Shown: positions 18,943 through 42,043, counted from the stretch's first letter. The stretch is 45,909 nt of DNA from an uncultured archaeon (GCA_964646355.1 CAZYEE010000002.1:1-45909); one strand, 5' to 3'. Notes: generated by a model from the sequence alone, not told the origin. Translations and numbers: made by a program.

Positions 18943-18948
18943 TTTAGT

Positions 18949-25078: not shown

Positions 25079-25576
25079 CTATTCATAAAGTTTTTCCAAT
25101 TCGTCTGCTACTCGTTTTAAATTTACTTCATTTATTAATTTTTGGGTGATTTGAAATGTTTCATTTTTGTCATCATAGACAATATAATTAGCTGCTTGTA
25201 ATTCCTTTAAATGTTGTTTCACATTTTGACCTCTTAAGGATTTAAGTAAATCTATATCGATTTTCTGATTTCTGTAATAATATAGAATTATTACTGCTAA
25301 TGTAGCTGTTGCTGCCTTACTTAATTTTGGTCTAACTATCTCTAAATTTTGTAAATAATCAATAAATTCTGGTTTAAGCATTAAATAGAATCTTTTATTT
25401 TTTGTATTATATTTTAAACATAAAACTGAATTCTCTAATTTAGCTTCAAGTTGAGATATTAAAAATAAGCTGTATTCATAATCTTTAATCTTTATTAATT
25501 TAGAGATGTCATGAATAGAAACTCCTTTTTCACCTCTAATAAATAACAATGATTCAAGACACAATAAATGATTCAA
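25079..25576 (-). CDS. scpB: Segregation and condensation protein B (ScpB)
   Basis: N-terminal LESLLFIRGEKGVSIHDISKLI is the ScpB signature. It has two winged-helix halves and follows scpA by 26 nt. Confidence 0.8.
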   Translation of the reverse strand: MNHLLCLESLLFIRGEKGVSIHDISKLIKIKDYEYSLFLISQLEAKLENSVLCLKYNTKNKRFYLMLKPEFIDYLQNLEIVRPKLSKAATATLAVIILYYYRNQKIDIDLLKSLRGQNVKQHLKELQAANYIVYDDKNETFQITQKLINEVNLKRVADELEKLYE

Positions 25577-25602: not shown

Positions 25603-26289
25603 TTATTCATTAACTACTTTTATATAAATTGTCCCATTAGGAAAATCTTCCTGATATATCTCAATTTTTTCCTCATTTGCTAGATAAGTTAATAAAATAA
25701 GTAGAGCGCCAGCTTCAGACCAATCTTTCCTGGTTAGTAATTCCTCGAATTCAATAACATTTTTATTCATTGAGCGTATCTTCTTATATAATTCATTTAA
25801 TTCTTTTTCAATCAGATAAACTTCAGTTTCTACTGGAAAATAATCAACAATCTGCATGGTTTTATTGTATTTTTTACGTTCAGGTCGATTTATTACGAGG
25901 TCAGTATAACATTTTATAAAATAATTTTCAGTAAGCGGGACCGAGAATTCTGGAATTTTATGATAGAAATTAATAGTTTCTGCAAGTTGGTCATCATTAA
26001 GGGATTTTATTGTTTGAAAAAACTCGAAATTTCCTTTTATTTTTTTTCCAATTATTTTTTGTAAAAGATTTTCTACTTTTTTCTGTATAATTTCAGCAGA
26101 TTGTGAATACACTTCCACTGTTATTTCATCATATCGCCCTTTTTTCAACTCAGATTTTAAAGGTTCATATATGGTATTTATCAAGTTTAGGTTATCTAAA
26201 GAGATTTCACCTTTGAGTGCTTTTGTACATATTTCCAAAATTTTTTCTGCATTGTTTATTTTATTTTTAATTTCTTTATCTTCAGACAT
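25603..26289 (-). CDS. scpA: Kleisin ScpA (segregation and condensation protein A)
   Basis: 228-aa helical protein sitting between smc and scpB, the conserved operon position. The C-terminal winged-helix-like segment is WSEAGALLILLTYLANEEKIEIYQE. Confidence 0.7.
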   Translation of the reverse strand: MSEDKEIKNKINNAEKILEICTKALKGEISLDNLNLINTIYEPLKSELKKGRYDEITVEVYSQSAEIIQKKVENLLQKIIGKKIKGNFEFFQTIKSLNDDQLAETINFYHKIPEFSVPLTENYFIKCYTDLVINRPERKKYNKTMQIVDYFPVETEVYLIEKELNELYKKIRSMNKNVIEFEELLTRKDWSEAGALLILLTYLANEEKIEIYQEDFPNGTIYIKVVNE

Positions 26290-26397: not shown

Positions 26398-29300
26398 TTA
26401 ATTATAAGATTCGCGTTTTATACAAGTTATCCTTGTAAAACCCTTCTTTTTATGAAGAGAATAAATTCGTTGAGCAAATACTCGAAGATAGGACTTTCTT
26501 GGGGTAGTAACTATATATTGACTACTATTAGAAAGTTGTACCAACAATTTTCCCAGTGATTCGCAATGTTGATCATCTAAATGAGCATCAATTTCATCAA
26601 GAAAATACCAAACACTTTTTTTAAGTAGTCTTTGAATTGCAAAAATAATACTTGCGGCGACTATACTATTTTGTCCACCTGAGAGAGATCGAGTACTTGA
26701 TACCACACCAGAGCCCATATCTACCCTTATATCTACTCCACTTTCAAGTGGAGATTGTGGATTAATTGAAATTAGTTCAATACTACCTTTAGGATGTATT
26801 TTATTAAAGATATATTTTAAATTCTTATTCAATTTATCTAAAGTTTCAATAAATTTTTGCTTCTTTTGTTCATAAAGATCATAATATAAATCAGAAGCGG
26901 ACTCTAATTCCTCTTTGCAGGTCTTTCTTTTTTCAACTAGTTCATTAATCTTTTTCATTTCTTCCTCATATTTTTCGGGAGCTGTGGGGTCAACAGGGCC
27001 CAATTTGCTTAACTCCTCTTCTAATTTTTCAATTTCAAGGTCTATTTCTTTAAAATCAATTTCCTTTATCTCATCAATTTTTACACCGAGTGATGCCATT
27101 TTATCCTCAATATTTTTAGCTCGTTCTAAGAGAGTGGATTTAGATTTATTTAACTCATTAATTTCATATATTAAACCTTTAATTTCTGCATCTATCTCCT
27201 CTTTTTTATCTACAATTTTTGCCCTTCTTTTTTGTATAGACTCTAATTGTTCATTAATCTCTTTGATTTTATTATCGATTTCATCATATCGTTCTCTTTG
27301 AGTATCTATCAGCTTTGTTAATTCCTCTCTTTCTATATCTAGTTCAGACCGCTCTTTTTCTACTTCTTTAATTTGATTTTGATACTCCTGTATCTGGCTT
27401 TCAAAAAAGGCGATTCGTGAATTGTAATTAAGAATTTCGGTATTATATCGTGCAATTTCTTTTTCTGAACTTGAAATTTTTTTATGTAAAGAAAGAATCT
27501 GCCCTTGTTTCTCTTTTATTTGATTTTCGACATTACCTAATTCAGTATTATCAATTTTAAGTTGAATTTCAGCCATTTTATTTTCTAATTCTCGAATTCT
27601 TTCGATAGTTAATCCTAATTCGGCGTCAAGATTTTCAAATTGTGTGACCGCTTCAATATATTCATCTTCTAATTTTCTATAGTCCATTATTACTTTATCT
27701 AGTATAGGATTAATTTCTAGAACTTGATTTTCTAGCTCCAAAATTCTTCCGTCTAACTGAGCTAGCTCTTCAACAATTTCAATTCGTTTCCGATCAGACC
27801 TCTCACGATCAGTGGTTAATTTGGTCACTTTTTTTCTTAATTGTGTATAATGACCTGTTAATTCTTCAAGTTCAAGTTTTACTTCGTAAATTTTTCGTCT
27901 ATAAAATTCATTAATTAATAAAAATCTTGAATCAAATTTATTTAATATCACAATCTCGCCAGTGGGCTCCACCAGAATACCGTCCTTAGTCACGCATCTA
28001 AAATTCGAATATTTTAATGCGGTATCGAGATCGACGACTAATAAAGTATTCTGAAATATTGCTTTGAATAATTTTTCATATTTTGGATCATACATAACAT
28101 AGTCAATAATTTTTCCAAGAACTTTGCTATCAGCTGGCACTTTCAATTCTTTAAACTCTTTAATATCGTTTAATGAAAAAAATGAGATTTGGCCAAAATT
28201 TAAGTCATTAATTTTCTGGGTAATCTCTTCTATATCATGATAATTATTTACCACAATATTTTGAAGTTTCTCGCCCCCCGCAATTTCAATAGCAAGAGCA
28301 TAATCCTTTTTTATATCAGAAATTAATTCTAAGGGAGTACCAATTACTGTTTTTAATATGCTATCGTCTCTTAATTTGAGTATTTTCTGTATTTCATCTG
28401 AATATCTAGGAATCATTTTTTCAAGTCTTATTTCGAGTTCATGTTTTTTCTCCGTTAATTCATTTATTTGTTTTTCATATTCGGTAATATTATAAAATAA
28501 ATCTCGCATTTCATCTTGACTATACGTTAAAAAGGTTTCAATTTTGTTTTTTTCATTACGTAAACGGTTTGATTTTCTTTGCATTCTGGTAAGTTTGCTG
28601 TTTATATTATTTAAAGAATCTTCTAATTCATTTTTTCGATTTAATAAGCTTTCTCGTTTATTTGATAGAATTTCAGTCTTACTCCTCCATTCAGTACGAA
28701 ATTTATCAATTTCATTCTTTTTTTGTTCTAGTTTTTTGATCTGTTCGTCTATTTTTTGGCGTTCTAAAGTAAGATATTTATATTCATCTTCAAGAGCAGG
28801 TAATCTATCTTTTAACTTTAAAACTTCCAGTTGCAGTTTTCTGCTTTTCTCTTTATTTTCTTTATCTAATTCTCTGATTTCAGATAATTTTTTCTCTGCT
28901 TTTTTTCTTTGATCTATGAGTTTCTTGATAGACTCATTTCTAAAAGTATTAATTTTTCTTTTAAATTCATCGATTTTTTCTTTTTTCTTAAAAATTTCAT
29001 CATTTATTCTATTTAAATTCTGAATTTGAATGCTGGATGCACCTGCCATCCGCATTTTTTCCTGTTCCAGCTTAGTACGTTTTAACCTTTCTTTTTCAAT
29101 CTGACCTCTTATTTCAGAAATTTCAACATCAAGTTGAGAAATTTGATTTTCCAGCTCTTTTATCTTGTTATTTCGTTCATTTATTTGATTATCGTGTTCA
29201 GAAATTTTTGAATTAAGTCTATTCAAAACGGATAATAATTTTAAAGCTTTATTATAATTTATTTTTTGCTTTATTTCTCTATATTTTAAGGCTTTATCTC

Positions 29301-29919
29301 TAGATTTTTTATATTTCTCTAATCTATTTTTAGCATCTTCTATAAGTAGTTCAATATGGTACAAAACATTTTTTGCATTATTTATTTTAGCTTCTGCTTC
29401 TGATATTTTTGGGTCATATTGAGATACACCTGCAATTCTTTCAATTAATTTTCTAAGACTCTCAGGAGATTCATTAATCTTAGTAGATATTTCTCCTTGT
29501 TTTACCATATTAAATCCATTTTGATTTATTCCATACTTGGCTAAAACTTCTTGAATCTCTGATAAAGAAGCGTTATTGCCATTTAATTTATAAACACTAT
29601 AAGCCCGCCCACTTTTTGGGACCCTTAATTGTCTTGTAATGGTTATAATTTCATTTTCTTCATCATCACTAAATATTAATGTTACTTCACAAAAATCAGC
29701 CATTCTCTGATTTATTGTAAAGTCTTTACTTATTAATTCAATTGCAGTACCTTCTAATCGATCATCATGTCCTCCTAATGCAAATGATATGGCATCTAGA
29801 ACGTTCGATTTACCTGTACCATTATTTCCCGTTAAAAGAGTTATCTTTTTTGAAAAATCTATTTCAAAAGATCCATTAAAAGTTTTGAAATTTGTTATAA
29901 TAGCCTTAGATAAGTACAT
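26398..29919 (-). CDS. smc: Chromosome segregation ATPase SMC
   Basis: Walker A GNNGTGKSNVLDAISFALG, with long coiled coils flanking a central hinge (about aa 520-680). Signature LSGGQNS and Walker B WYFLDEIDAHLD. 1173 aa. Confidence 0.95.
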   Translation of the reverse strand: MYLSKAIITNFKTFNGSFEIDFSKKITLLTGNNGTGKSNVLDAISFALGGHDDRLEGTAIELISKDFTINQRMADFCEVTLIFSDDEENEIITITRQLRVPKSGRAYSVYKLNGNNASLSEIQEVLAKYGINQNGFNMVKQGEISTKINESPESLRKLIERIAGVSQYDPKISEAEAKINNAKNVLYHIELLIEDAKNRLEKYKKSRDKALKYREIKQKINYNKALKLLSVLNRLNSKISEHDNQINERNNKIKELENQISQLDVEISEIRGQIEKERLKRTKLEQEKMRMAGASSIQIQNLNRINDEIFKKKEKIDEFKRKINTFRNESIKKLIDQRKKAEKKLSEIRELDKENKEKSRKLQLEVLKLKDRLPALEDEYKYLTLERQKIDEQIKKLEQKKNEIDKFRTEWRSKTEILSNKRESLLNRKNELEDSLNNINSKLTRMQRKSNRLRNEKNKIETFLTYSQDEMRDLFYNITEYEKQINELTEKKHELEIRLEKMIPRYSDEIQKILKLRDDSILKTVIGTPLELISDIKKDYALAIEIAGGEKLQNIVVNNYHDIEEITQKINDLNFGQISFFSLNDIKEFKELKVPADSKVLGKIIDYVMYDPKYEKLFKAIFQNTLLVVDLDTALKYSNFRCVTKDGILVEPTGEIVILNKFDSRFLLINEFYRRKIYEVKLELEELTGHYTQLRKKVTKLTTDRERSDRKRIEIVEELAQLDGRILELENQVLEINPILDKVIMDYRKLEDEYIEAVTQFENLDAELGLTIERIRELENKMAEIQLKIDNTELGNVENQIKEKQGQILSLHKKISSSEKEIARYNTEILNYNSRIAFFESQIQEYQNQIKEVEKERSELDIEREELTKLIDTQRERYDEIDNKIKEINEQLESIQKRRAKIVDKKEEIDAEIKGLIYEINELNKSKSTLLERAKNIEDKMASLGVKIDEIKEIDFKEIDLEIEKLEEELSKLGPVDPTAPEKYEEEMKKINELVEKRKTCKEELESASDLYYDLYEQKKQKFIETLDKLNKNLKYIFNKIHPKGSIELISINPQSPLESGVDIRVDMGSGVVSSTRSLSGGQNSIVAASIIFAIQRLLKKSVWYFLDEIDAHLDDQHCESLGKLLVQLSNSSQYIVTTPRKSYLRVFAQRIYSLHKKKGFTRITCIKRESYN

Positions 29920-29934
29920 TTTAACAACATCTAA

Positions 29935-31614
29935 TTATTTATTTAATTCAAATTCAGTAATAACTTCATTATATTGATCATCGGTAAAAGATATAGTATA
30001 TTTTTTCCCAATTTTTGGAAAGAGAATTGAATATGGATTTTTATTTAAAGTCCTTTTTAACGTTTCAATATTTATTCCGGCTACTTTTTGAATTTCACTT
30101 AAGTCTAGGGCTCTCTGTTCTGTTTCAAATAATTTAGCTAATCTTGAAATCAAATTATAATTATCAGATAGCGCAAGTCTCAGCGCATTCTTGATCATCT
30201 TTTTGTTTATTAACATTTGAGAGTTTAATGCTTCGATTTTTAATTCAATTTCTTCTAAATCAGAGGAACTAGAATAAATCTTATCTGTGGTAGATTGAAC
30301 TTTAGAAATTTTTTTCAATCTTGGAGAAAACTTTGATTTTTGAGCAACAATATTATTAAACGAAAATTGGATATCATCTTCAGAAACATATTCTTTATTT
30401 TCATTGATTGATTTAAAATAAGCTCCTTCAACTATCTTTACAAGATCTTTGCAGGAAAGCCCATCCATATTTTCATCCATAGTTAAATTGCTCACTAAAA
30501 TATTGATATCTAGATTTTCATCCAAATTAATATTTTCTAATAATCTATGTAAGATTTCAGAACGTGCAACCTCGTTTGGATAGTCAAATAAACAATATTG
30601 ATCAAATCTTGACAAAAGCGGTTGATCTAGATCGTCCAGATCTATTGTAGTACATATAACCAAAACTTTATCATTACATAAATTAATTTTATCTAAGAAA
30701 TTTAAAAAATTAAGAAGTGCCATGTTTGAGATTTCCGAATTAAATATTAACTGAACATTTTCGATTAATAAAATACAAGGTATTATATTTTCATTATTTT
30801 TTACGAGATTAATTATATAGTCAAGCGATTCAATCTGAAATTTGATATTATTTGCTAATAATAATGGTAAATTTAACTCTAAAATATTTAATGACAACTC
30901 TTTTGCTATTGCATAAACTGTAGATGTTTTTCCATTTCCTGGTGGGCCATAAAGTAATATTTTTGAGTCAAAATTGTATAATTGCTTAGGTAATTTGATA
31001 AGCCGTCCTCTTGATAATATAAGATCTTTATTTGATTGATAATCACCCAGCATTTCCAAAGTAATTTTGATGTCTTCGGGGGATACGATTTTATATATCT
31101 TTTCAATATTTGAACTTTCTTCGGAATCTGGGGCAGATTTGATTAAGTTCTTGATGGTATCTTGGAATTCCTGAGTGATTTTTCTGATTTCTTCTATGAT
31201 AGAATCAGTTCCATAATCTCTAATTGCGCCCATATTAATTTCAATTTGACCATCTGCTACTTGGGAAATTATCGAATCAACCTTTTTAGCCCAATTATCT
31301 ATTTTATTATAATTAGTCTGTAGCTCAGAAATATTCTTTATATTGTTTTCAAGCTGACTTTTAATTTCAACTAAATCTTCTTTTATTACTACCAGATCTG
31401 CACCTAATTCAGATAGCTCTTTACCATTTAAAAGTCTCAAGCTTTCGCTTAATTTTTTACTTAATTCTGATACCTTGCTTGTAATAATATTAAAAGCTTC
31501 TATAACTCCTTCAGCTTTCGGGACGTCTCCTTCAGGAGTTGCAATTCTCTCTATTACGATATTTTTTTTCTCAGACACTTTGACCAAATCCCTATAGTTA
31601 TATATTATCATCAA
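29935..31614 (-). CDS. Classic-clade AAA+ ATPase with N-terminal coiled coil and C-terminal winged-helix-like domain
   Basis: Walker A LLYGPPGNGKTST. The Walker B position reads CILLIENV, so the Asp is replaced. It also has a sensor/second region of homology (VICTTIDLDDLDQPLLSRFD..., P.EVARSEIL). The stop is 15 nt upstream of the smc start on the same strand. Confidence 0.8.
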   Translation of the reverse strand: MMIIYNYRDLVKVSEKKNIVIERIATPEGDVPKAEGVIEAFNIITSKVSELSKKLSESLRLLNGKELSELGADLVVIKEDLVEIKSQLENNIKNISELQTNYNKIDNWAKKVDSIISQVADGQIEINMGAIRDYGTDSIIEEIRKITQEFQDTIKNLIKSAPDSEESSNIEKIYKIVSPEDIKITLEMLGDYQSNKDLILSRGRLIKLPKQLYNFDSKILLYGPPGNGKTSTVYAIAKELSLNILELNLPLLLANNIKFQIESLDYIINLVKNNENIIPCILLIENVQLIFNSEISNMALLNFLNFLDKINLCNDKVLVICTTIDLDDLDQPLLSRFDQYCLFDYPNEVARSEILHRLLENINLDENLDINILVSNLTMDENMDGLSCKDLVKIVEGAYFKSINENKEYVSEDDIQFSFNNIVAQKSKFSPRLKKISKVQSTTDKIYSSSSDLEEIELKIEALNSQMLINKKMIKNALRLALSDNYNLISRLAKLFETEQRALDLSEIQKVAGINIETLKRTLNKNPYSILFPKIGKKYTISFTDDQYNEVITEFELNK

Positions 31615-31789: not shown

Positions 31790-32302
31790 ATGGACGATTT
31801 AGATTTTAATATTACATTAGGAGAAGTAAAAGGTTATTGGAATTGGAAACATAACATACCCTTATTTAGATTTACCGAGGGTAGAGGCGAAAATTGGAAG
31901 AGAAGATTAAAGGAAGAATTGGAAAAATTAGAGATACTAAAGAAATATGGTAAAGAAAAAATATTCTTTGAGGATATAATTTTAGACGAAAGAAATGACA
32001 GAATTTTTCATTGTCTTAGCAATATAAAAGGTAAGAAAATTGATATTGTTATAAGATTACCCGTGCGATATCCAAAAGATCCACCTCTTGCGGACTTTTC
32101 GGTAGGACCATGGGCATTTCCCAGTGAAGCTGGTATTAGATCTGCATGTTTAGGCCAAATTTACAGTAAATGGGATAGGACCGGAAGGATGGGAGTGGCG
32201 CATTTTGTAGGGATGTTAGGTTCATATATAGCTCTTGCCCTACATTCAATTTCAACCCCAAGAGTAAAAAATGAAAATCTAAAAAGACGAAAAAAGCATT
32301 AA
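31790..32302 (+). CDS. UFC1-like (UFM1-conjugating-enzyme-like) E2, paralogue 1
   Basis: 170 aa, against 167 for human UFC1 as I recall it. WKRRLKEELEKL matches UFC1 WVQRLKEEYQSL. IRLPVRYPKDPP matches IPITYPTTAP. The candidate catalytic Cys120 lies in SACLGQIYSKWDRTGRMGVAHFVGMLGSYIALA, compared with [34 protein letters not shown]. There is no HPN motif, as in UFC1. Confidence 0.8.
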   Translation: MDDLDFNITLGEVKGYWNWKHNIPLFRFTEGRGENWKRRLKEELEKLEILKKYGKEKIFFEDIILDERNDRIFHCLSNIKGKKIDIVIRLPVRYPKDPPLADFSVGPWAFPSEAGIRSACLGQIYSKWDRTGRMGVAHFVGMLGSYIALALHSISTPRVKNENLKRRKKH

Positions 32303-32320
32303 ATTTTTATAAAGAGGGTG

Positions 32321-33157
32321 ATGATCATAGATTTTGCGGATATTGCAGATGAGATAAAATCAGAAATGAGACCATGGACTGAAGTTGAGGTAATTATTTC
32401 CGATATTCAAGGAAATATAAAGTATTCAGATATTTTTTCTCAAAAGTTTTTATTAGCACTCTCAAGATTTATTAAGAAAAAAGGTCCAACTTTTGCAATC
32501 GGGGATTATTACTATATCCAAAATGTTTCTGGTGTCATGCTCTTCAAAACTTCGATGAACAGTATGGTAATTCTTAGAACACAACAAAAATTAGGGATTT
32601 TATTGATCTTTCTTAAAATATTAGAACGTATAGGACTTGAAATTGATATTCTATTAGGAGATTATATTCGAATAGAAAAAACACCACCAAAATATTGTGA
32701 TCAAGAGTTCATTCCCAGAGAAATACCATTATTTAATATCATTGCTAAACCAAATTCTCCAAATTGGCTTGACAGGTTACAAGAGGAATATGATAAATTA
32801 AATTATTTATATAGATTAAGAGATACTTATTCAACATTTAGTATATATAAACAAGCAAATAGTAATAGAATTTTCAAATGTTCATTCCAAGGTATTGTAT
32901 TCGATCTCAGATTAAGCCTTCAATATCCATTTGTTATGCCTATTGCTGATGGCTTTTATTTTGGTCGATGGTTTAATCCTGCAGGAGATCATAAAAATGC
33001 ATGCTTAGGCATATTAAAAAATAGATGGAGACCCGATGGAAGAATGGGAATCGCTCATTTTATTCAATTATTAGGATATTATACCTCTATAGCAAATTCG
33101 AAACCAGTTGAATTTAAGGTAAGACAGCCAAGAGCAATAAATATTCATTTTTATTAA
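32321..33157 (+). CDS. Roadblock/LC7-like N-terminal domain fused to a UFC1-like E2 domain, paralogue 2
   Basis: The N-terminal 115 aa or so fit the Roadblock pattern (EVEVIISDIQGNIKYSD...VMLFKTSMNSMVILRTQQKLGILL). The C-terminal half has WLDRLQEEYDKL, LSLQYPFVMP and NACLGILKNRWRPDGRMGIAHFIQLLGYYTSIA. The Cys codon is at 33002-33004. It starts 15 nt after paralogue 1; GTG is at 32318 and ATG at 32321. Confidence 0.75.
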   Translation: MIIDFADIADEIKSEMRPWTEVEVIISDIQGNIKYSDIFSQKFLLALSRFIKKKGPTFAIGDYYYIQNVSGVMLFKTSMNSMVILRTQQKLGILLIFLKILERIGLEIDILLGDYIRIEKTPPKYCDQEFIPREIPLFNIIAKPNSPNWLDRLQEEYDKLNYLYRLRDTYSTFSIYKQANSNRIFKCSFQGIVFDLRLSLQYPFVMPIADGFYFGRWFNPAGDHKNACLGILKNRWRPDGRMGIAHFIQLLGYYTSIANSKPVEFKVRQPRAINIHFY

Positions 33158-33257
33158 TTATTGCTCCTTATTTATTCCTAATGTTTAATTGTGTTATTTT
33201 TTTACGAATTTTAACGGCTGTTTTTCAATAGAACATGTTTTATTCAATATCAAATCT

Positions 33258-34082
33258 CTATCTTTTTTCTTGAATATCACCACATGTATCGCAATTTTTT
33301 CTAGGAGTTAGATTAAAGTACTGGAGCGATACATCTTTTTCAAGTGAAAATCTTATTTGTGAAGGTATTGGCTCATTTAAAACGAGTTTTATTCCTTGAT
33401 CTGCTTGAAGACTGCCCGTTATATTCATAGTTGTTGCCAAACTTGCGCCGCAAGGTATTTTTGGAATTTGTATTTGAGATTCATCAGGTTCTAGGTCTAT
33501 CAAAGTATCATAGCTATAATAGCATTCTAAACAAGGTGTCTTTCCAGGTATTACATTATTAACAATCCCTCTTAATGCATTTTCAGATGTACCACCATCT
33601 ATTAAAGGTTTTCTTGATATTACCGCATATAGATTTACCTCAATCCTTGCAGCTTCATTATCAAAACATGTAAAAATAAGATTAGATTTTCTTATCAACT
33701 CTTCTAATTTGTCCCAAGCAATTATATCAGCCAAATACCATTCAGTTTTAACATGAAACTTTTTATCGATTTCAGGGAGATTTCTTGTCCGTTCTAAGAA
33801 TTTTGCCAAGGTTTCAGATTTACTTTTTCCCAAATCTTCTTCGTGATGGTTCATACGATTCAAATTTTCCTCAGAAACGATATCCTTGTCCACGATTATA
33901 AATTTTCCAAATCCACATCTATTCAAAATATCTGCTACAATTCTACCAAGTCCACCAGCGCCCCCAATAAATACCGTGGTATCTAGAAATTTACGGACAT
34001 CATAGCCAGCAAATATAACTCGTGAAAACATTTTTGGCATATTCAAAGCAAGCTCTTCTCGTTCTTCAACTGGAATCAACAT
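33258..34082 (-). CDS. UBA5-like E1 (ThiF-fold adenylating enzyme with catalytic-Cys loop)
   Basis: [68 protein letters not shown] matches UBA5 [50 protein letters not shown] matches UBA5 [26 protein letters not shown], which contains the catalytic Cys. The second zinc pair is CDTC near the C-terminus. Confidence 0.85.
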   Translation of the reverse strand: [274 protein letters not shown]

Positions 34083-35150
34083 TTAGATATACCACCCAAA
34101 TGTGTCAGTTATTAAAATATCTAATATCAGATCAAATAGATTCTTAAAAAAAATTAAATTAATCTTTTTATGCTCTTCAATTATTTTCCATTCTAATGGT
34201 GTTTTTATTTTGGAAACTTTAGTATAATTTGGTAAAATTTTATCATTTTCAACAAATCTGAGTTTAGTTATTTCGGATTCGTCTATTTTAATAAGGTCTA
34301 ATAAAATATCTCTTAATTTATACAAAGTATCATCTTGATCCAAGAAAATCCGAATTAGAATATCCTCATTTAAACCAACATTTTTTAAATAAACAGGGTA
34401 TCGTGGAGGAATGTCCAATTTTTTGGGTATTTGATCCAACTTTAAATCATAGGGAATAGGTATATTATCTATTTCAAAATCAGATCTCGAAAATAATTTT
34501 AATAATTCATGCCCTATTTGGTCTAAGAATCGATACTTTAAACCTTTTACATTTTCAGATTTTTGTGCTACCAGTTTTAGATCTATTTTAAGCGAAATTT
34601 TTTTCTCAATTAACTGTTCATAAGGTTCGAGTTCTCGAATTTCTACTTCTACTTCATAGATATTATTTTCAGTGGCTGTATAGCCTGCTATTCCATCATA
34701 CGGCTCTACAATATAAATTATAAAGGCATTCTGAGAAGAACCTTTACCATATAATAGATAATCTTTTTTATCTGTTCCGCTATAACCTAAAAATCCTGGA
34801 TGTTTATGCATATTTCCAACAATATCAAGCCCAGCAGGTAATCCAGCCCTTATTCTGGCTATTTTTTTTAATCCGGATTTTATAAACGCACCTGATTGCT
34901 CAGTATAGTCGAATTCAATTAAATCATAAATATAACAAGTCTTACCTCTAAATAAACCTACAATATAAAACCCTACCTCATTTGGTGTTTGACGACCGAT
35001 ATCTAATGCCTTTAACCATAATTTTGTAGGTAATATTATTTTATTTACTATGGGTTTATCTTCATGTTCTATATCTAAATACCCAAATTCACTTTCATAA
35101 TCATCATATTTCTTTTTATAACGTTGACTTTTTCTGAAAAACAAGATCAA
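34083..35150 (-). CDS. JAMM/MPN+ metalloprotease domain fused to a C-terminal beta-grasp (ubiquitin-like) candidate segment and a hydrophobic tail
   Basis: Glu in PNEVGFYIVG. The metal/catalytic motif HKHPGFLGYSGTD (H115, H117, S124, D127) is at nt 34770-34808. Residues about 251-324 (PVYLKNV..ILIRIFLDQDDTLYKLRDILLDLIKID..KLRFVENDKIL..LEWKII) have a beta-beta-alpha-beta-beta-beta pattern. The last 27 or so aa are hydrophobic (LIFFKNLFDLILDILITDTFGWYI). TTG start. The gene is flush with both neighbours: a 5-nt gap upstream and 0 nt downstream. Confidence 0.7.
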   Translation of the reverse strand: MILFFRKSQRYKKKYDDYESEFGYLDIEHEDKPIVNKIILPTKLWLKALDIGRQTPNEVGFYIVGLFRGKTCYIYDLIEFDYTEQSGAFIKSGLKKIARIRAGLPAGLDIVGNMHKHPGFLGYSGTDKKDYLLYGKGSSQNAFIIYIVEPYDGIAGYTATENNIYEVEVEIRELEPYEQLIEKKISLKIDLKLVAQKSENVKGLKYRFLDQIGHELLKLFSRSDFEIDNIPIPYDLKLDQIPKKLDIPPRYPVYLKNVGLNEDILIRIFLDQDDTLYKLRDILLDLIKIDESEITKLRFVENDKILPNYTKVSKIKTPLEWKIIEEHKKINLIFFKNLFDLILDILITDTFGWYI

Positions 35151-35155
35151 AACCC

Positions 35156-35704
35156 CTAAATGTTAATAGGTCTGCTTTTTCGTTCTAATGCATAATAATA
35201 TCCGATCATGGTACAAAAATGTGCAAGACCAAATCTTCCATCAATTCTCCAGCGCTTTATAAGTTTTCCAAAACATTTATAAGCAAGAGAGACATGAAAA
35301 TCACCCTCAGACCTCTGAACTAAAGGAATTTGCTTCGGATATAAAATTGATAACCTTATTTCTAATTTCATAGGTTTTGAACCTTTTGAAAAATAGAAAT
35401 CGGCGCTCCAGATTCTCGTATTATTGCTTTCATGTTTCAAATTGTCAAAAACATAAAAACCTACCGAATGTATGTATTTTTCTTTTAAAATATTAAAAAT
35501 TTCATATTCTTCCTGGACTCGAAGGTTCCATTTGGTCGATCTTGGAGTATAAATATTTTTAAACAATGGTAATTCTTCAAAAATAGCATCGCTTTTAATC
35601 TTAAGTTCGTATGGAGTAAGAAAATTTTTCCGAATAAATTCATTCATATCTATTGAAATATCGTCGAAGTATTTTCGCATATCAAGATAATCTTTGTCCG
35701 TCAA
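35156..35704 (-). CDS. UFC1-like E2, paralogue 3 (most divergent)
   Basis: WNLRVQEEYEIF, IRLSILYPKQIP and YKCFGKLIKRWRIDGRFGLAHFCTMIGYYYALE. The Cys144 codon is at 35273-35275. 182 aa, TTG start. It is the first gene of the E2-JAMM-E1 operon. Confidence 0.75.
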   Translation of the reverse strand: MTDKDYLDMRKYFDDISIDMNEFIRKNFLTPYELKIKSDAIFEELPLFKNIYTPRSTKWNLRVQEEYEIFNILKEKYIHSVGFYVFDNLKHESNNTRIWSADFYFSKGSKPMKLEIRLSILYPKQIPLVQRSEGDFHVSLAYKCFGKLIKRWRIDGRFGLAHFCTMIGYYYALERKSRPINI

Positions 35705-36508
35705 TTTCAGTTCCCATTATTAATAAAATGTTAATTTTATTTAAAGTATTTGAATTTAATATTTTAAAATATAGAGCTCATAATTTAACAAATCATTTTT
35801 GAAAATAACCAGTTTTTTTATTAATGTCTAAAAAATATATCTATAAGGAATTACCTTTTTATTGAAAATATTTGATTCTTTCATTGGAGTAAAATAACCA
35901 TCACGTTTTTTATATCATTTAACCGAAATCATTAAACTAATCCTTGATTTTAATTTTTTTATTTTTGTGGATAAGCTTAATTTTTACACCATTACTAAAA
36001 ATAATAATGGATATTGGATCAAATTAGGAGAATTTTCAAGAAAAATTACACTTTACACTTTACAATCGAAAAAAAGATAAAAATACAATGATGAATTTAT
36101 TAGTAATTTATGAATTAATTCTGAATAATCAGAAAAAAAATAAAAATTCACTGTAAGAATTTTAGGATTAATTTACGGTGATTTTATTTTGCAGACTAAA
36201 AAATCAAAATATTATAATAAAAGTAGTAAACAATACGGCAGACAACACAATAAACAAAAGATTGTTCAATATTTACATGTTTTTAAATCTGTATCACTTA
36301 AAAAATTGAACAAGATATCCGGCTGAACTTTAATGAAATTCAAGAAATAATCAATAATGAATTAAATTCGGGGAGAATTATCGGGGAATTTAAATTTGGA
36401 ATATTTTATAGGGATCTAGATATATCCAAAAAAAAGAAGGAACTATTATTAAAATATATAAATGAAAATGATAAGATTTTTTTAGAGGATGCCTCAAGGA
36501 TCGCCCGA

Positions 36509-37393
36509 TTGAGTCCAAGACAGACTCGTGACTTAATTGATGAATATTTAAATGGAAATATAATTAAAGGGAAATGGAATTCAGAAAAAAATCTATTTAT
36601 CAATTTTGCTGTAGAAAGTGTTTCAAAAGAATTAGAGGTAAAAAGAGATTTTGATTATGTTGGAGGGAATGTACGCTTTAAAGTGGTCGTGAGAAATGTC
36701 ACAAAGATGCCAATAACAGATATTAATGTAATATTAAATGTAGGTGGACAGTACATAATTGATGAAGAGTCCAAAAAGGTTGAGGCATTAATGCCTGGAG
36801 AAACGAGGGGGGTAGATTTTATGCTTACACCAGTCACATGCAGAATATCAAAAATATTAGGACTGGTCACCTATTATGACCCATTCAATGAAATGCATAG
36901 TATTACTATAAGACCAAAGGATATTCGAATTAAATGTCCTTTAGTAATCCCCGCTGATGCAACAAATAGCGAAATAATTGAATGGCAAAAATCATTGTTA
37001 AAGGGTTATAGCGTTATTCAATATAAGGATTTACCACCAAATCATGTTTTTAATATAGTCTGTGATCAAATATCTTCTTTAGATTTAAAATTAATCAGCA
37101 GGAATGATGAAGACCTAATCTCAACTTATGCAGGAATAACAAAAATCTCTAACTCAAAACTTGTGGTAGTCGCTAAAATTAATCGTGATGAAATCAAAAT
37201 AGCAACATGGACTCCATCATTAAAAGAAGCTACGGGGTTTATTGCATATTTAAAGAATCTAATCAATATTGCACTAGATGCATCCCAATTAAAAGTAGGT
37301 ATGGAGAAAATAGGACAAAAAATCATTAGGCTTTTTGAAGTATCTCAAAGATTAATTACATTATACGAGTTTTGTAGAAAAAAGAATCAGTAG
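36509..37393 (+). CDS. Winged-helix + beta-sandwich protein, function unknown; true 5' end probably lies upstream of 36509
   Basis: The WH-like N-terminus is FLEDASRIARLSPRQTRDLIDEYLNGNIIKGKW. The Ig/CARDB-like segment is GGNVRFKVVVRNVTKMPITDINVILNV...LMPGETRGVDFMLTPV. The same frame stays open back to 36302 (69 codons) with no ATG, GTG or TTG in it. Confidence 0.65.
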   Translation: MSPRQTRDLIDEYLNGNIIKGKWNSEKNLFINFAVESVSKELEVKRDFDYVGGNVRFKVVVRNVTKMPITDINVILNVGGQYIIDEESKKVEALMPGETRGVDFMLTPVTCRISKILGLVTYYDPFNEMHSITIRPKDIRIKCPLVIPADATNSEIIEWQKSLLKGYSVIQYKDLPPNHVFNIVCDQISSLDLKLISRNDEDLISTYAGITKISNSKLVVVAKINRDEIKIATWTPSLKEATGFIAYLKNLINIALDASQLKVGMEKIGQKIIRLFEVSQRLITLYEFCRKKNQ

Positions 37394-37434
37394 AGGATTT
37401 ATTAATCCTAATAAAAGAGATAAAATATAAATTG

Positions 37435-38109
37435 ATGAAAATTGATAGAAATAACAAAATAATAAATTATATTGAGCAATGGGAAATAGATTTTGGTACA
37501 AAATATGATGAAAATAATCTTAAAGAAAACATTATATCAAATTTAATATATGATACTTTAAATTGGTTGGAAGAATTAGAAGATTCTATTAATACAAATA
37601 TCGATAATTATTATGCCTCATTTAAAGAGAATATTGAAGCAATTGAAGAAAATAAGAAAAAATTATACGAATTAAGAAAAAATATTAAATTAATACAAAA
37701 AGATTACCTGAATTTAATTCTTAGATATATAATGGTCATCTATAAAAATAGTGGAATTGTTGTTTATTCTTATGCGTTCAGTGGATTTGATATGGATGAA
37801 GATTTAATTTCGGGATTTCTTACAGCTATCGGTTCTTTTGGTACCGAAATAACAAAAAAAGATACTGATATGGAATCGATTAAATATCAAGATTTTGAAA
37901 TAGAGGTGGCAAATGGCACGAATATTAAAGTCGCCTTGATTTTAAATGGGAAAAAAATAGATGTTATTAAAAAATTGATTAGAAAATTTATAAATATGTT
38001 TGAAATGGAATATAAAAATGAATTGAAAAATTGGAGTGGTGATGTTTCTATCTTCAATAATGCTAATAAATTAATTGATGAATGTTTTAATTTTGGTAAT
38101 GAAAATTAA
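37435..38109 (+). CDS. Coiled-coil protein with C-terminal Roadblock/longin-like domain
   Basis: The N-terminal 90 aa or so are helical. The C-terminus (IMVIYKNSGIVVYSYAFSG.DMDEDLISGFLTAIGSFGTEI...IKVALILNGK) fits the archaeal Roadblock/longin-like pattern. TTG is at 37432 and ATG at 37435. Confidence 0.6.
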   Translation: MKIDRNNKIINYIEQWEIDFGTKYDENNLKENIISNLIYDTLNWLEELEDSINTNIDNYYASFKENIEAIEENKKKLYELRKNIKLIQKDYLNLILRYIMVIYKNSGIVVYSYAFSGFDMDEDLISGFLTAIGSFGTEITKKDTDMESIKYQDFEIEVANGTNIKVALILNGKKIDVIKKLIRKFINMFEMEYKNELKNWSGDVSIFNNANKLIDECFNFGNEN

Positions 38110-38119
38110 GGGGACAATC

Positions 38120-41100
38120 ATGATGAAGATAAATAATAAAAAGATTTTTTTCATATTGGTAATAAATATTTTAGTATTTTCCTTTTTAATGAACTTTCTC
38201 GTGAGTTTTTATTCCAGAAATAGTCTTAATCAGAATAATATACCTAATCATGACACAATAAGAAAAATATCAAGTAGTACGGTTTATCCACCATTTTTAC
38301 GTGCCCAAAAGGAATGGTTTACAGAAAATGATACACAGACCTATGACCTAGCAAGTTATGATTTTGACGGAGATAATATATCGGAGATAATTTCGGTAGG
38401 GTTTTATAAAAACGATGCAGATCAAATATTTGGGCAAATTAGGATTTGGAATTTTAGTTTAAATAGAATAAATCTAATAATATCAAAATCATTTAGAGAA
38501 TCGAGCGATATTATATTCCGCGGTATAGAAATTACAGATATAGACAATGATGGAGTAAGTGAATTAATCATAGCCGGGGATTTAGAACCATTAAAAAAAG
38601 GTATAATTACAATATGGAATTATACGAATAATGCATTGGAATTGGAAGCAGAAAAGACATGGGGTTATAATGTTATTGGGCCCTATGTTTTTGGAGTTGC
38701 AGTGAATGATTTTGATAACGATTCTTATTATGAAATTGCTACTATTGGGTATTATTCTGGATATACTTATCTAAATATTTGGAACTATTCAACAAATCAG
38801 ATATTAAATGAATCACAATTTAATTGGAGAAAAGGTGCAGATACCATACCTAATTCAATTGCAGCTGATGATATAAACGGAGATGGAATTATTGAAATAA
38901 TAATAGGAGGTCGAATCTCAAAAACGCCATATAATGCATTTGTTAATATCGTAAAATATGCTAATGGAAGTTTATATAATCTCTATGAAACAGAGTGGGC
39001 TGATGGAAACACTGAAGTTCTTGTCGTAAAGACCTGGGATTTCAATAATGATACTATACACGAGATAATTTCGGGTGGATATACAAAAAAGGACGCACTA
39101 TATTCTGCAATGGAAATTGCTATCTGGGAAATTGATAATAATAGTCTTGTCCTAATTAACGAAACATATTGGTATTCATCATCATCGCATGCAAGATTGT
39201 GGGATTTAGAAATTACTGATTTTGATAATGATGGATTTATTGAAATTATTTCGGGTGGATATATTGGTAGAAAATCTGAATTTAGAATTTGGAATCTTAC
39301 AAACGATAATATAAATTTAGAAGCATCAGCTGAATGGGATACCTATGAGGATTTGACTGGCGGTTTTGACAATGTTGCAGACTATAATTTATTATCCGGA
39401 GATTTTGATTCAGATAATGTACTTGAACTTTTAACATCTATTCAGAATAAGACAAGCCTCAGTGGAGATTGGAAAGTTCAATTCAGAGTTTGGGATGCAA
39501 ACAATTATACGATAATCTTTGAAGATTTTAAAGTAAAATACAATCCAATTTCGCAATGTGTAAATATAAAGACTAAATTAAAATGTACATATCAAGGACA
39601 CGGATATCTAAATGCCTCAGAAATTAAAACAGCTAAATATTATATTAGAAAAAATAATGGGAATGATACTGGGCTATCAGGAAATTTGGTTTATGATTTA
39701 TTAAATGATTCATATTGGTCTGCTATTGTTAATGTATCTATTTTGCCAAAAGGAATTTATTATATAGAACTATTTGCTGATGATGGGCATGTCTCAAACA
39801 ATACAGGATATTTACCTGGAAATCAAAACCAATTCAAAATAGGGTTTGAATTAAATAATTTATACAACTTACAGCTGATAAGTTCCACTGAGTGGATCAG
39901 TAATTCAAGTTCTACATATATTTATGATAAAAAAGTAATTGATATAGATAACGACGGAATTAAAGAAATTATAGTATTCAGTAGAATATTTTTAAGTCCA
40001 AATTTGGCTGAATTACAGGTTTGGAATTTTGTAAATGAAGAATTGATATTAAAAGATACTTTTCAATGGGGTATGGGCGGTTCAACAGACATAATACCGA
40101 GAGCGATTGATGTGGGCAATATTTTAGGGGATGATAACTTAGAAATAGTGTGTGGGTCATATTTTAAAAATGAATCTGGTAAAAATGAGATTCTAATTAA
40201 TATATTTAATTATACTGATGGTAAAATTAAAAATGTTACCGCATTTAAATGGCACTATTATAATGAAACTTGGATCTATGATATGAAAATTGGAGATATA
40301 GACAATGATAACACCAACGAACTAATTACTGGTGGAAGCTTTTTTGAGAATGATCGAGAAAAAGCTTTACTAGCTGTTTGGAATTTTTCTAATAATAAGC
40401 AATCATTAGAAGCCGTAAAAACCTGGATTTATAATCCATATAACGATACTTTTATTTATAGACTTGATATAGCAGATATTAATAATGATAATAACCTTGA
40501 GATCGTTGCTGGAGGGATTATATATATTGGTAAGTTTATAACCGCAGCTTTCTTATCTGTTTATAATTATAGCCATAATATAATATTAAATATGTCATCA
40601 AATCTAATTATTGACGATCCATACGATATGTCTATTACCTATCTTTGTTGTGATGATGTTGATAACGATAATTTGACTGAAATAGTTGCTTCTTTTAAAG
40701 TTGATACGGAAGGTAATTGTACTATTGGTGTATTTAACTTTACTGAAAAGTCCATAAATATTGAAAATTATACTAGAGTATATTTTGGAGTCTCGACAAC
40801 TATAATGAGTACATGCACGGGAGATATCGATAAGGATAATTATACTGAAATTGTATTTACTGGATTCTTGTCAGCTAATCCATCCGATGCCTTTTTCGTA
40901 ATCTATAACAAAACAGGAAACAATTTTCTCAAGGAAAACTTTACTCGTTTTGATATCAATATTAATGATATTATTTACCAAGCAAAAATTTCTGATATTG
41001 ATAATAATGGGATACCTGAATTAATCACATTTTCAAATATATACTATGCAAATCCAATTTCTAAAAATTATGCTCAATTAAGAATTTGGATAGCACCATT

Positions 41101-42043
41101 CTTAAAAATTAAAATAGGTAAAATAACTCAAGATTACAAGAAGGACCTAATTTCTCTCTGGGATATTTCCGTTTATTCTTTTTTACATGGATTTATAAAT
41201 GGTACGGGTTATCATCAGACCAATTTTAAAGTTTATAATGCTACTGGAGAATATACAGGGATAAATGGCATTCTTGAATATAATTTAGATACTCAGAGCT
41301 GGTGTGCAGAAAATATAAATGTATCGAGCCTTTTAGACGGCTTGTACTATGCAATCATATATTTTGAATATTATGATTCATTAGGATTTAGTTTTCATAT
41401 AATAAATGATACAAGTGAATTTGTTATTGACAATACTAAACCTTATTTTTTGGATACACCCAATGATTATCAATATATAGTAGGAACAAGGGGTAATATT
41501 ATAGAATGGATTCCTATGGATCTTCATCCTGGTCAGTATTTTATTTATATCAATGATATTTTGGAAGAATCTGGATTCTGGGAAGCAAATAAATCAATTA
41601 AATTTAATTTAGATGGGTTCAATGTTGGGACATATACTGTTAAAATAGTAATTAATGATTCTTTTTCAAATATTATAACGCATCAATTTACATTAACAGT
41701 CTATAATTCTAATAAACCACCTGAAAATTATTGGTTAATTATATGGATTACTATAATAATCATGGTAATTTCGGTGGCTATATCTATATTTCTTGTAAAA
41801 ACTTATCAGACAAAAAAATCATATCTAAAAGAAAAAACTACCCAAACTTTTGACCAAATTATCAAAAGTATTCGATTTTTAATAGAAGGTAGGGATGAAG
41901 TAAATATAAATGAAATATCTAATAAAATTGGGAAGTCATATGAAGAGACTGAAGAAATAATCGTGTCTTTGACTTATAAGGGTATTTTAAAGGGATTTAT
42001 TGATAAAAATATATTTTATAATGAGGAAAATTTTTTAAATTAA
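38120..42043 (+). CDS. Giant surface protein: signal/anchor helix, two seven-bladed FG-GAP/VCBS-type beta-propellers each followed by an Ig-like domain, a third Ig-like domain, a TM helix and a cytoplasmic winged-helix tail
   Basis: There are 14 Ca-binding-loop-like motifs of the D.D.DG..E(I/L)(I/V) type, 7 per half. Examples are DFDGDNISEII, DIDNDGVSELII, DINGDGIIEIII and, in the second half, DIDNDGIKEIIV, DIDNDNTNELIT, DIDNNGIPELIT. N-x-S/T sequons are abundant. The TM helix YWLIIWITIIIMVISVAISIFLV is at 41729-41797. The track start at 38075 overlaps the upstream gene, whereas ATG 38120 is preceded by AAGGGGA. Confidence 0.85.
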   Translation: MMKINNKKIFFILVINILVFSFLMNFLVSFYSRNSLNQNNIPNHDTIRKISSSTVYPPFLRAQKEWFTENDTQTYDLASYDFDGDNISEIISVGFYKNDADQIFGQIRIWNFSLNRINLIISKSFRESSDIIFRGIEITDIDNDGVSELIIAGDLEPLKKGIITIWNYTNNALELEAEKTWGYNVIGPYVFGVAVNDFDNDSYYEIATIGYYSGYTYLNIWNYSTNQILNESQFNWRKGADTIPNSIAADDINGDGIIEIIIGGRISKTPYNAFVNIVKYANGSLYNLYETEWADGNTEVLVVKTWDFNNDTIHEIISGGYTKKDALYSAMEIAIWEIDNNSLVLINETYWYSSSSHARLWDLEITDFDNDGFIEIISGGYIGRKSEFRIWNLTNDNINLEASAEWDTYEDLTGGFDNVADYNLLSGDFDSDNVLELLTSIQNKTSLSGDWKVQFRVWDANNYTIIFEDFKVKYNPISQCVNIKTKLKCTYQGHGYLNASEIKTAKYYIRKNNGNDTGLSGNLVYDLLNDSYWSAIVNVSILPKGIYYIELFADDGHVSNNTGYLPGNQNQFKIGFELNNLYNLQLISSTEWISNSSSTYIYDKKVIDIDNDGIKEIIVFSRIFLSPNLAELQVWNFVNEELILKDTFQWGMGGSTDIIPRAIDVGNILGDDNLEIVCGSYFKNESGKNEILINIFNYTDGKIKNVTAFKWHYYNETWIYDMKIGDIDNDNTNELITGGSFFENDREKALLAVWNFSNNKQSLEAVKTWIYNPYNDTFIYRLDIADINNDNNLEIVAGGIIYIGKFITAAFLSVYNYSHNIILNMSSNLIIDDPYDMSITYLCCDDVDNDNLTEIVASFKVDTEGNCTIGVFNFTEKSINIENYTRVYFGVSTTIMSTCTGDIDKDNYTEIVFTGFLSANPSDAFFVIYNKTGNNFLKENFTRFDININDIIYQAKISDIDNNGIPELITFSNIYYANPISKNYAQLRIWIAPFLKIKIGKITQDYKKDLISLWDISVYSFLHGFINGTGYHQTNFKVYNATGEYTGINGILEYNLDTQSWCAENINVSSLLDGLYYAIIYFEYYDSLGFSFHIINDTSEFVIDNTKPYFLDTPNDYQYIVGTRGNIIEWIPMDLHPGQYFIYINDILEESGFWEANKSIKFNLDGFNVGTYTVKIVINDSFSNIITHQFTLTVYNSNKPPENYWLIIWITIIIMVISVAISIFLVKTYQTKKSYLKEKTTQTFDQIIKSIRFLIEGRDEVNINEISNKIGKSYEETEEIIVSLTYKGILKGFIDKNIFYNEENFLN

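Follow-up and report, generated by a model that had tools for sequence, protein, structure and literature searches.

An Asgard archaeal gene cluster predicted to encode a UBA5-like E1, three UFC1-like E2 proteins and a JAMM protease

A 45,909-nucleotide stretch of DNA from an uncultured archaeon (GCA_964646355.1, CAZYEE010000002.1:1-45909), here called the window, carries at positions 31,790 to 35,704 five adjacent genes in two convergent sets, whose products appear to be a UBA5-like E1, three UFC1-like E2 proteins and a JAMM protease. The question raised by this locus is whether these proteins belong with the eukaryotic UFM1 cascade, which comprises the E1 UBA5, the E2 UFC1, the modifier UFM1, the proteases UfSP1/2 and the E3 UFL1-DDRGK1-CDK5RAP3, or with another kind of ubiquitin-like protein (Ubl) system. 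An initial annotation, made from the sequence alone, had called the five genes orthologue-grade matches to the eukaryotic machinery; the open reading frames (ORFs) were all found where it had placed them, on the strands it had given. We consider it likely that the five genes form the enzyme set of a chromosomal Ubl conjugation system of Asgard (Helarchaeota-type) archaea, with the UFM1 cascade as its closest known counterpart. Judged by their sequences, the proteins most likely take part in a working conjugation cascade of UFM1 type.

The E1 and the E2-like proteins

The E1 belongs to the ThiF family of Pfam (E = 2.2e-37). When its sequence alone was compared with all PDB sequences, the best match was UBA5 (1.7e-21, 80 bits), followed by MccB and MoeB at about 1e-11, and identity to human UBA5 is 29.9% across 231 aligned residues. 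A profile of eight orthologues gave E-values of 2.8e-31 for UBA5, 1e-22 for MccB and 1e-17 for MoeB; the corresponding scores were 111.7 bits for UBA5, 83.4 for MccB, about 67 for MoeB/ThiF, about 64 for the NEDD8 E1 and about 44-46 for bacterial E1s of the Bil/Bub type, which leaves UBA5 28 bits ahead of MccB and 45 ahead of MoeB/ThiF. None of the NCBIfam equivalog cut-offs was reached (72.5 vs 450 bits for UbaA, the ThiF model also remaining below). By profile score, the E1 matches UBA5 better than it matches E1s of the MoeB, ThiF, UbaA or MccB type, as had been expected from the annotation, which foresaw both the ThiF assignment and UBA5 as the top PDB match. The window also contains a second ThiF-family gene (7653..8405) adjoining ThiI (8491..9654), probably encoding a sulfur-transfer E1-like enzyme, which served as an in-genome control: the E1 is nearer to human UBA5 (80 bits) than to this protein (54.8 bits).

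The two stretches said to be shared with UBA5, GTSENALRGIVNNVIPGKTPCLEC and CGASLATTMNITGSL, are both present in the E1. In profile alignments, Cys211 ('PCGASLATTM') falls on the active-site Cys of UBA5 ('VCAASLPTTM', GVCAASLPTTMG), in agreement with the catalytic position originally proposed, and it lies 24 residues past the first of two CxxC pairs (Cys184/187 and Cys264/267). All five Cys are invariant in 8/8 orthologues; the nucleotide-binding loop GxGxxG occupies residues 41-46, and GGAGGLG is invariant among the orthologues. The candidate catalytic Cys is located inside the adenylation domain, and the protein, of only 274 residues, has no separate Cys domain.

The three small proteins each have the motifs W..R..EE, YP..(P)P and C[LF]G...W...G[VIL]AHF, with 15 residues from the Cys to the Gly, and HPN is absent from all of them, in line with the hallmarks listed for them at the outset (a W..RL.EEY helix, YP, Cys-15-G(V/I/L)AHF and no HPN). 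Searched singly against Pfam, they matched only UFC1, at E-values of 0.03-0.15 (0.034 for E2-like 3), and neither PADLOC nor NCBIfam models matched them. The family to which they belong is rare, with 37 clusters at E<=0.001 in an exhaustive hidden Markov model (HMM) search of 1.84 billion representative proteins. When 35 members were compared with Pfam, the best UFC1 E-value was 2.5e-7, and UFC1 was matched by 16 members, RWD by 9 and UQ_con by 8. A 10-sequence profile of the family gave 1.3e-6 for UFC1 and 3.5e-3 for the best canonical E2 in the PDB; with 35 domains these values became 1.1e-11 (47.8 bits) for UFC1 and 3.5e-7 for UBE2L3, the best canonical E2, and the match spanned UFC1 residues 8-141, including its extra N-terminal helix.

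Structure prediction points in the same direction. The AlphaFold2 (AF2) model of E2-like 1, with a predicted local distance difference test (pLDDT) score of 82.5, consists of a helix, four strands, the Cys loop and further helices. In Foldseek, its ranks 1-19 were UFC1 structures (E 6e-6, template modelling (TM) scores 0.55-0.60), with canonical UBCs at TM about 0.47, and all 50 matches listed were E2 enzymes or E2-containing complexes. The putative catalytic Cys is invariant in 35/35 members and is placed by HMM alignments on Cys116 of UFC1 ('GGKICLTD'), which is the catalytic position that had been assigned to it. The segment that begins with it in the family, C-[LFM]-G-x(4-7)-W-x(3-6)-G-[IVL]-A-H-[FYW], has a parallel in UFC1. 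On these sequence and model comparisons, the small proteins are a clade of the E2 superfamily whose nearest known family is UFC1, a remote one at about 20% identity, and the proposal that they are of UFC1 type rather than canonical UBC or RWD proteins is upheld by both the profiles and the fold.

The three paralogues are not equivalent in their distribution. E2-like 3 (E 3.5e-47 against the family HMM) is orthologous, at 49-54% identity, to the E2 gene found directly after the Ubl gene in other loci, and E2-like 1 to the last E2 gene, after the E1, of operons ordered Ubl>E2>JAMM>E1>E2. Since these orthologues recur across loci, two Cys-bearing E2 lineages (types 1 and 3) appear to be a constant feature of the system. 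E2-like 2 (E 2e-44) was found only in window-type loci; its UFC1-like domain is preceded by an N-terminal domain of about 120 residues without a Pfam match, and its true start may be the ATG at 32321. A Roadblock/LC7 identity suggested by eye for this N-terminal domain was not supported by Pfam or hhalign and was abandoned. In metagenomic relatives (P0040, P0047, P0049, P0045, P0053) the E2 domain is fused to Ras-family GTPases, HEAT repeats or zinc ribbons, and one of the Ras-GTPase fusions has a weak Roadblock/LC7 match.

A different view of these proteins would make the E1 an adenylyltransferase of the MoeB/ThiF/MccB type, acting on sulfur carriers or modifying peptides, and would see non-catalytic adaptors of the ubiquitin E2 variant (UEV) or RWD type in the E2-like proteins. 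It would explain why MccB, MoeB and ThiF are the next-best matches of the E1, why the NCBIfam ThiF and UbaA models are matched, all below cut-off, and why RWD is matched by 9 of the 35 E2-like members, and it could call on the MoaA and MoaE genes in the window. We regard it as very improbable, because the E2-like Cys never varies, a JAMM protein is always part of the module, and sister loci add a Gly-terminated protein of β-grasp size with cleavable extensions. Moreover, the E1 is without a rhodanese domain, and sulfur transfer has a ThiF-ThiI pair of its own in the window.

The predicted protease and the candidate modifier

The 355-residue protein is, by its sequence and predicted structure, a JAMM/MPN+ enzyme with an intact active site, as initially annotated. 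The residues of its motif, E58...H115-x-H117...S124-x-x-D127, are invariant in 22 homologues, although the second His and the Ser are 6 residues apart instead of 7, and the Pfam Prok-JAB match is sub-threshold (E 0.11). Its AF2 model (pLDDT 83.7) retrieved in Foldseek, as top matches, Rpn11 (6e-9), CSN5, BRCC36 and the Rpn11 homologue of Caldiarchaeum. Beyond the MPN domain, the protein has a β-grasp domain (β-β-α-β-β-β) and a C-terminal helix (residues 332-351). This β-grasp domain is weakly ubiquitin-like (hhalign P 7e-4 against ubiquitin); it was considered as a possible modifier and rejected, being internal, without a terminal Gly and unrelated to the modifier family described below (hhalign P 0.6).

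A better candidate for the modifier came from comparison of ORFs across related loci, where a gene for 88-89 residues lies directly upstream of the first E2 gene in three cases (L007, L008 and L009). A homologue search and a metagenome scan brought the family to more than 40 sequences, of 88-92 residues up to the terminal Gly, with 64-93% identity across metagenome-assembled genomes (MAGs) labelled Hel-, Loki-, Hod- and Thorarchaeota. All reach an invariant G[TS]PDQLG. Some stop there, others continue for 1-9 variable residues, and a few carry unrelated extensions of 59-155 residues, a pattern documented in more than 30 sequences. In the fusions (L022:954-1691, L028:1028-1735 and L030:8001-8447), PDQLG reads through into unrelated C-terminal domains, one with predicted transmembrane helices and one Cys-rich, which resemble ubiquitin-fusion precursors; a divergent modifier in L017 ends in ...TPDMLGG. 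An invariant Gly end with variable tails is, as far as sequence tells, the behaviour of a processed ubiquitin-like precursor. Solitary modifier genes (L013, L014/L015 and L016) occur among long runs of small unannotated co-directional genes, and one of them is preceded by a zinc-ribbon E2-like gene. These surroundings might be mobile or viral elements, and searches of IMG/VR yielded no relatives.

Taken as a cascade, the system would work as follows. The modifier (88-92 residues, ending in ...G[TS]PDQLG) would be synthesised in its mature form or extended at the C-terminus by a tail or a fused domain, and the JAMM protease would trim it to expose the terminal Gly and would probably also reverse conjugation. 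The UBA5-like E1 would adenylate this Gly and form a thioester on Cys211, from which the modifier would be passed to the Cys of an E2 (Cys120, Cys229 or Cys144) and on to target lysines. The E2 lineages of types 1 and 3 presumably serve different targets or steps, and E2-like 2 may be a lineage-specific duplicate with an added N-terminal domain. In the window genome, the modifier gene would lie outside the cluster.

Several observations weigh against assigning this cascade to the UFM1 type. UFC1 was the top Pfam family of the small proteins, as the annotation anticipated; membership of it was not found, since their scores of 12.2, 13.1 and 14.3 bits are under the gathering threshold of UFC1 (PF08694), 25 bits, and because of these scores the E2 family is a distinct relative rather than a PF08694 member as curated. 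The family conserves neither the TAK motif of UFC1 nor HPN, the loop being variable (FPS in E2-like 1). The E1 ends 7 residues past the second CxxC and, stopping there, is without the C-terminal UFM1-interacting and UFC1-binding sequences of UBA5. The protease is a JAMM enzyme and not a UfSP cysteine protease, and no UFL1, DDRGK1 or other E3 was seen among the module neighbours and 20 other window ORFs scanned (most of the larger ones), in keeping with the earlier remark that no UFL1-like E3 was evident. The description orthologue-grade was thus too strong for the E2s, with sub-threshold Pfam scores, about 20% identity and a family of their own, and the E1 too departs from UBA5 in its missing tail.

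The modifier adds further points on this side. Neither tblastn at E<=10 nor an HMM run against every ORF of >=45 residues detected its gene in the 45.9-kb window. One relative, GCA_014729825.1, has a window-type locus on one contig (L004) and a modifier gene on another (L010), so window-type genomes seem to keep the modifier elsewhere, and by analogy with this relative we infer that the window organism does as well. An hmmsearch of the modifier family against the PDB gave no match at E<=10. Against human UFM1, a comparison of a profile with that single sequence, hhalign gave P 0.011 and a probability of 4% in a sensible register, which is not significant; P against ubiquitin was 0.09-0.34. The link of the modifier itself to UFM1 is unproven at the level of sequence.

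These points could be accommodated if the locus encoded a working archaeal Ubl system without specific kinship to UFMylation, UBA5 and UFC1 being its best matches only as the simplest, most 'prokaryote-like' enzymes and the E2 family being an independent offshoot. Unlikely as we consider this alternative, it agrees with the modest resemblance to UFC1 (identity about 20%, TM 0.55-0.60), with the matches of the E2 family to canonical UBCs and RWD, the absent TAK motif, the lack of significant similarity between modifier and UFM1, the second place of MccB among the E1 matches and the bacterial origin of UBA5 inferred by Picchianti et al. 2023 (PMC10183829). It leaves aside that E1 and E2 independently indicate one and the same eukaryotic pathway, that the E2 match takes in the N-terminal helix of UFC1 and the W...G-x-A-H segment past the Cys, and that the modifier is UFM1-like in its length, its single end Gly and its frequent short tail. 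Moreover, structure-based Ufm1 homologues have been reported that are restricted to Asgard archaea (PMC12962969).

Gene order and genomic setting

The five genes and the genes linked to them are listed in Table 1. The JAMM gene abuts the start codon of the E1 gene, and E2-like 1 and the AAA gene are transcribed divergently from a 175-bp spacer. The order of the five genes is kept in other Asgard contigs at 54-79% identity, including at least three other distinct genomes (L001/2/3/6, L004 and L005), and rearranged operons have 30-60% identity. Because this conserved order recurs across Asgard contigs, the genes are real and not chance ORFs. The nearest homologues are in MAGs of Helarchaeota and Lokiarchaeota (75% identity to Hel_GB_B).

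Table 1. Positions of the conjugation genes, of selected parts of their products and of the adjoining genes in the window
Feature	Position	Strand	Description
E2-like 1	31790..32302	+	170 aa, UFC1-like E2
E2-like 1, putative catalytic Cys120	32147..32149	+	codon
E2-like 2	32318..33157	+	279 aa, UFC1-like E2 domain
E2-like 2, Cys229	33002..33004	+	codon
UBA5-like E1	33258..34082	-	274 aa, adenylation domain only
E1, putative thioester Cys211	33450..33452	-	codon
JAMM/MPN+ metalloprotease	34083..35150	-	355 aa
JAMM, β-grasp domain	34182..34400	-	aa 251-323
JAMM, MPN domain	34638..35042	-	aa 37-171
JAMM, HxH..S..D motif	34770..34808	-	
E2-like 3	35156..35704	-	182 aa, UFC1-like E2
E2-like 3, Cys144	35273..35275	-	codon
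AAA+ ATPase	29935..31614	-	559 aa, single classical AAA domain at aa 219-344 (Pfam AAA, E 7e-22)
SMC	26398..29919	-	downstream of AAA gene; Pfam matches and precomputed annotations
ScpA-position gene	25603..26289	-	Pfam matches and precomputed annotations
ScpB	25079..25576	-	Pfam matches and precomputed annotations

In related loci, the same functions form the operon Ubl>E2>JAMM>E1>E2 (L007/L018, L009/L021, L019, L020, L026 and L031), which in sister Helarchaeota loci is extended by an AAA ATPase gene and SMC. In the divergent locus L017 the gene set is the same, except that the final E2 gene sits on the other strand; in L008 and L012 the E1 and JAMM genes are paired some kilobases away from the Ubl gene, and in L008 two E2 genes come after this Ubl gene. 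E1 and JAMM genes were adjacent in 9/9 of the distinct loci first examined, and at least two E2-like genes were present in 8/8 that were not cut off. One full Asgard-type operon, L007, is on a 105.8-kb contig (DATKTP010000204.1) labelled as the bacterium 'Candidatus Deferrimicrobium'; its HMM scores and gene lengths are essentially equal to those of the metagenome locus L018, and it is probably a misbinned Asgard contig. A gene for an EF-2/EF-G-like GTPase paralogue of about 800 residues recurs upstream of the module (L005, L009, L020, L021, L026 and L031).

The AAA ATPase has its best PDB matches in VAT, Cdc48, Afg2 and Msp1. In L008, L009/L021, L020, L026 and L031 an orthologue is the next gene after the final E2 gene, in the same orientation, and in the window, L001 and L004 the AAA gene adjoins the module. 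In every related locus that is long enough, SMC comes after the AAA gene, and then ScpA and ScpB where the sequence reaches; L005 and L017 are exceptions to this linkage. In sister loci, module, AAA, SMC, ScpA and ScpB share a strand and are spaced 30-120 bp apart, an arrangement suggestive of a single long transcription unit. The AAA ATPase is a probable accessory component of the system, its gene being alternatively the first of the adjacent SMC operon, and the AAA-SMC linkage may be functional or may be synteny inherited within one lineage. If functional, the AAA ATPase, and possibly SMC-ScpAB, may act with the conjugation system or be its targets, and the ATPase could possibly process conjugates.

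The module is chromosomal and not a mobile island. The window is evenly AT-rich (26-34% GC), the housekeeping neighbours of the module are syntenic in relatives, PADLOC did not match the E2s, and IMG/VR, searched for relatives of the modifier family and of the E2 family, contained none; a viral or mobile origin was rejected on this last result. Among the other archaeal genes of the window are those for eRF1, SMC/ScpB, RuBisCO form III, an energy-coupling factor (ECF) transporter, and ThiI with the second ThiF.

This setting bears on whether the genes might instead be an antiviral defence system of the bacterial Bil/Bub kind, or of the kind of Cap2/Cap3 in the cyclic-oligonucleotide-based antiphage signalling system (CBASS), tagging phage or host proteins in the course of an infection. 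We consider such a function improbable: the synteny with eRF1, SMC-ScpAB and the EF-2 paralogue is conserved, the modifier is very strongly conserved, unlike typical defence genes, and IMG/VR is without relatives. The parts list, and in sister loci the gene order, do equal those of BilABCD, and the Rossmann region of the E1 matches Cap2 E1-E2 models at about 1e-11; that match is, however, confined to the N-terminal part of the protein (at most residues 20-167), and the E1 structures of Bil or Bub type (9egb, BubCD) score far under UBA5. Some solitary modifier genes amid small unannotated co-directional genes (L013, L014 and L016) would fit a defence role, whereas PADLOC gave no match for the E2-like proteins and a marginal one for the JAMM protease (E 0.015).

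The remaining sequence around the module includes an AT-rich spacer of 805 bp (35705..36508) between E2-like 3 and the next gene, in which we found no plausible ORF (none of >50 residues wholly inside), no Rfam match and no repeats; in related genomes, a gene for an iron-containing alcohol dehydrogenase (Fe-ADH) lies about 60-170 bp past the position of E2-like 3 instead of the long spacer. Beyond it, proteins of 294 residues (36509..37393) and 225 residues (37432..38109) had no significant Pfam match, and a segment of the latter, 'GFLTAIGSFGTE', is roadblock- or longin-like by eye. The gene at 38075..42043 encodes a 1322-residue FG-GAP-repeat protein whose C-terminal part comprises a transmembrane helix and, on the cytoplasmic side, a winged-helix-like tail; its C-terminus has a marginal PCI-like match (E 0.08), and the gene is not conserved next to the module. 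Elsewhere in the window, the stretch 17986..20226 has a gene of the ribose-1,5-bisphosphate isomerase type (IF-2B family) directly upstream of a RuBisCO large-subunit gene, which is the arrangement of the archaeal AMP salvage pathway.

Meaning and comparison with known systems

The origin of UFMylation has been described as a mosaic, in which UFM1 and UFC1 occur in eukaryotes alone, UBA5 is of bacterial descent, and UFL1 and DDRGK1 come from Asgard archaea (Picchianti et al. 2023, PMC10183829). More recently, structure-based Ufm1 homologues were described in nine Asgard clades (Koestlbacher et al., bioRxiv 2024; Nat Microbiol 2026; PMC12962969), in a work that never mentions UFC1, UBA5, operons or conjugation enzymes; these homologues may or may not be of the modifier family reported here. 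Liu et al. 2020 described UFL1-domain fusions only. In the literature searched, which was an incomplete collection, neither UFC1-like E2s from archaea nor this E1/E2/JAMM operon had been described. The system is a variant of the known prokaryotic class of operons with Ubl, E1, E2 and JAMM genes, and it is the first we could find in which E1 and E2s both indicate the UFM1 pathway; in sister genomes a modifier with a single Gly is linked to them. What the present analysis adds to the annotation is the modifier gene, the linkage to AAA and SMC, and the distribution of the family.

The enzymes that have been missing would be provided by an operon in which a UBA5-like E1, UFC1-like E2s and a protease are physically joined to a modifier with a single Gly, and such an operon would argue for a whole cascade in Asgard archaea rather than scattered parts. 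A bolder proposal, possible if doubtful in our view, is that UBA5, UFC1 and UFM1, the eukaryotic core, all trace back to an Asgard operon that worked at first with a JAMM protease and an AAA unfoldase and was coupled genomically and perhaps functionally to SMC-ScpAB. Were this true, UFC1 would not be a eukaryotic invention, nor UBA5 a separate acquisition from bacteria. A small and soluble system of four to six proteins would also lend itself to reconstitution, as a means of testing how a UFM1-type cascade works in the absence of the UFL1 E3, and the AAA-SMC-ScpAB linkage and the Ras-like GTPase fusions of the E2 domain are leads to its cellular role.

Among prokaryotic systems, sampylation in Euryarchaeota (SAMP, UbaA and HvJAMM1) is alike in having an archaeal Ubl, a ThiF-type E1 and a JAMM protease. 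It is not known to use an E2; in addition, SAMPs end in GG, and the Asgard E1 matches the UbaA model far under its cut-off (72.5 vs 450 bits). With the Bil (BilABCD) and Bub systems the Asgard module shares the four functions, and the gene order of the sister loci equals that of Bil, which is Ubl, E2, JAB, E1. It differs from them in showing no detectable specific sequence kinship, Bil/Bub E1 structures scoring far below UBA5, and in its chromosomal housekeeping context, its archaeal host and its several E2s.

The archaeal ubiquitin operons of Caldiarchaeum subterraneum and Asgard archaea are similarly compact sets of Ubl, E1, E2 and JAMM genes, and the JAMM domain has the Rpn11 homologue of Caldiarchaeum among its best structural matches. 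These operons (Ub-E1-E2-RING-Rpn11) encode a ubiquitin ending in GG, a UBA1-like E1, canonical UBC E2s with HPN and a RING E3, whereas the module described here combines a UBA5-like E1 with UFC1-like E2s, lacks a RING protein, and is linked to a modifier without sequence kinship to ubiquitin.

The UFM1 cascade itself differs from the Asgard system in several respects. The Asgard proteins are remote from it (identity about 30% for the E1, about 20% for the E2s); the E1 is without the UFM1-interacting sequence (UIS) and the tail that binds UFC1; the E2 paralogues number two or three vs one and have no TAK; a JAMM metalloenzyme takes the place of the UfSP cysteine protease; UFL1 and DDRGK1 are not linked to the genes, the operon being joined to an AAA ATPase and SMC; and the similarity of the modifier to UFM1 is not significant by sequence. 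What the two have in common is a single-domain E1 with its putative active-site Cys inside the adenylation domain and two CxxC pairs, for which UBA5 is the best match; E2s without HPN, with an extra N-terminal helix and a C-L-x7-W-x6-G-x-A-H segment, for which UFC1 is the best match in both sequence and fold; and a modifier of about 85-90 residues with a single end Gly, often masked by a short tail.

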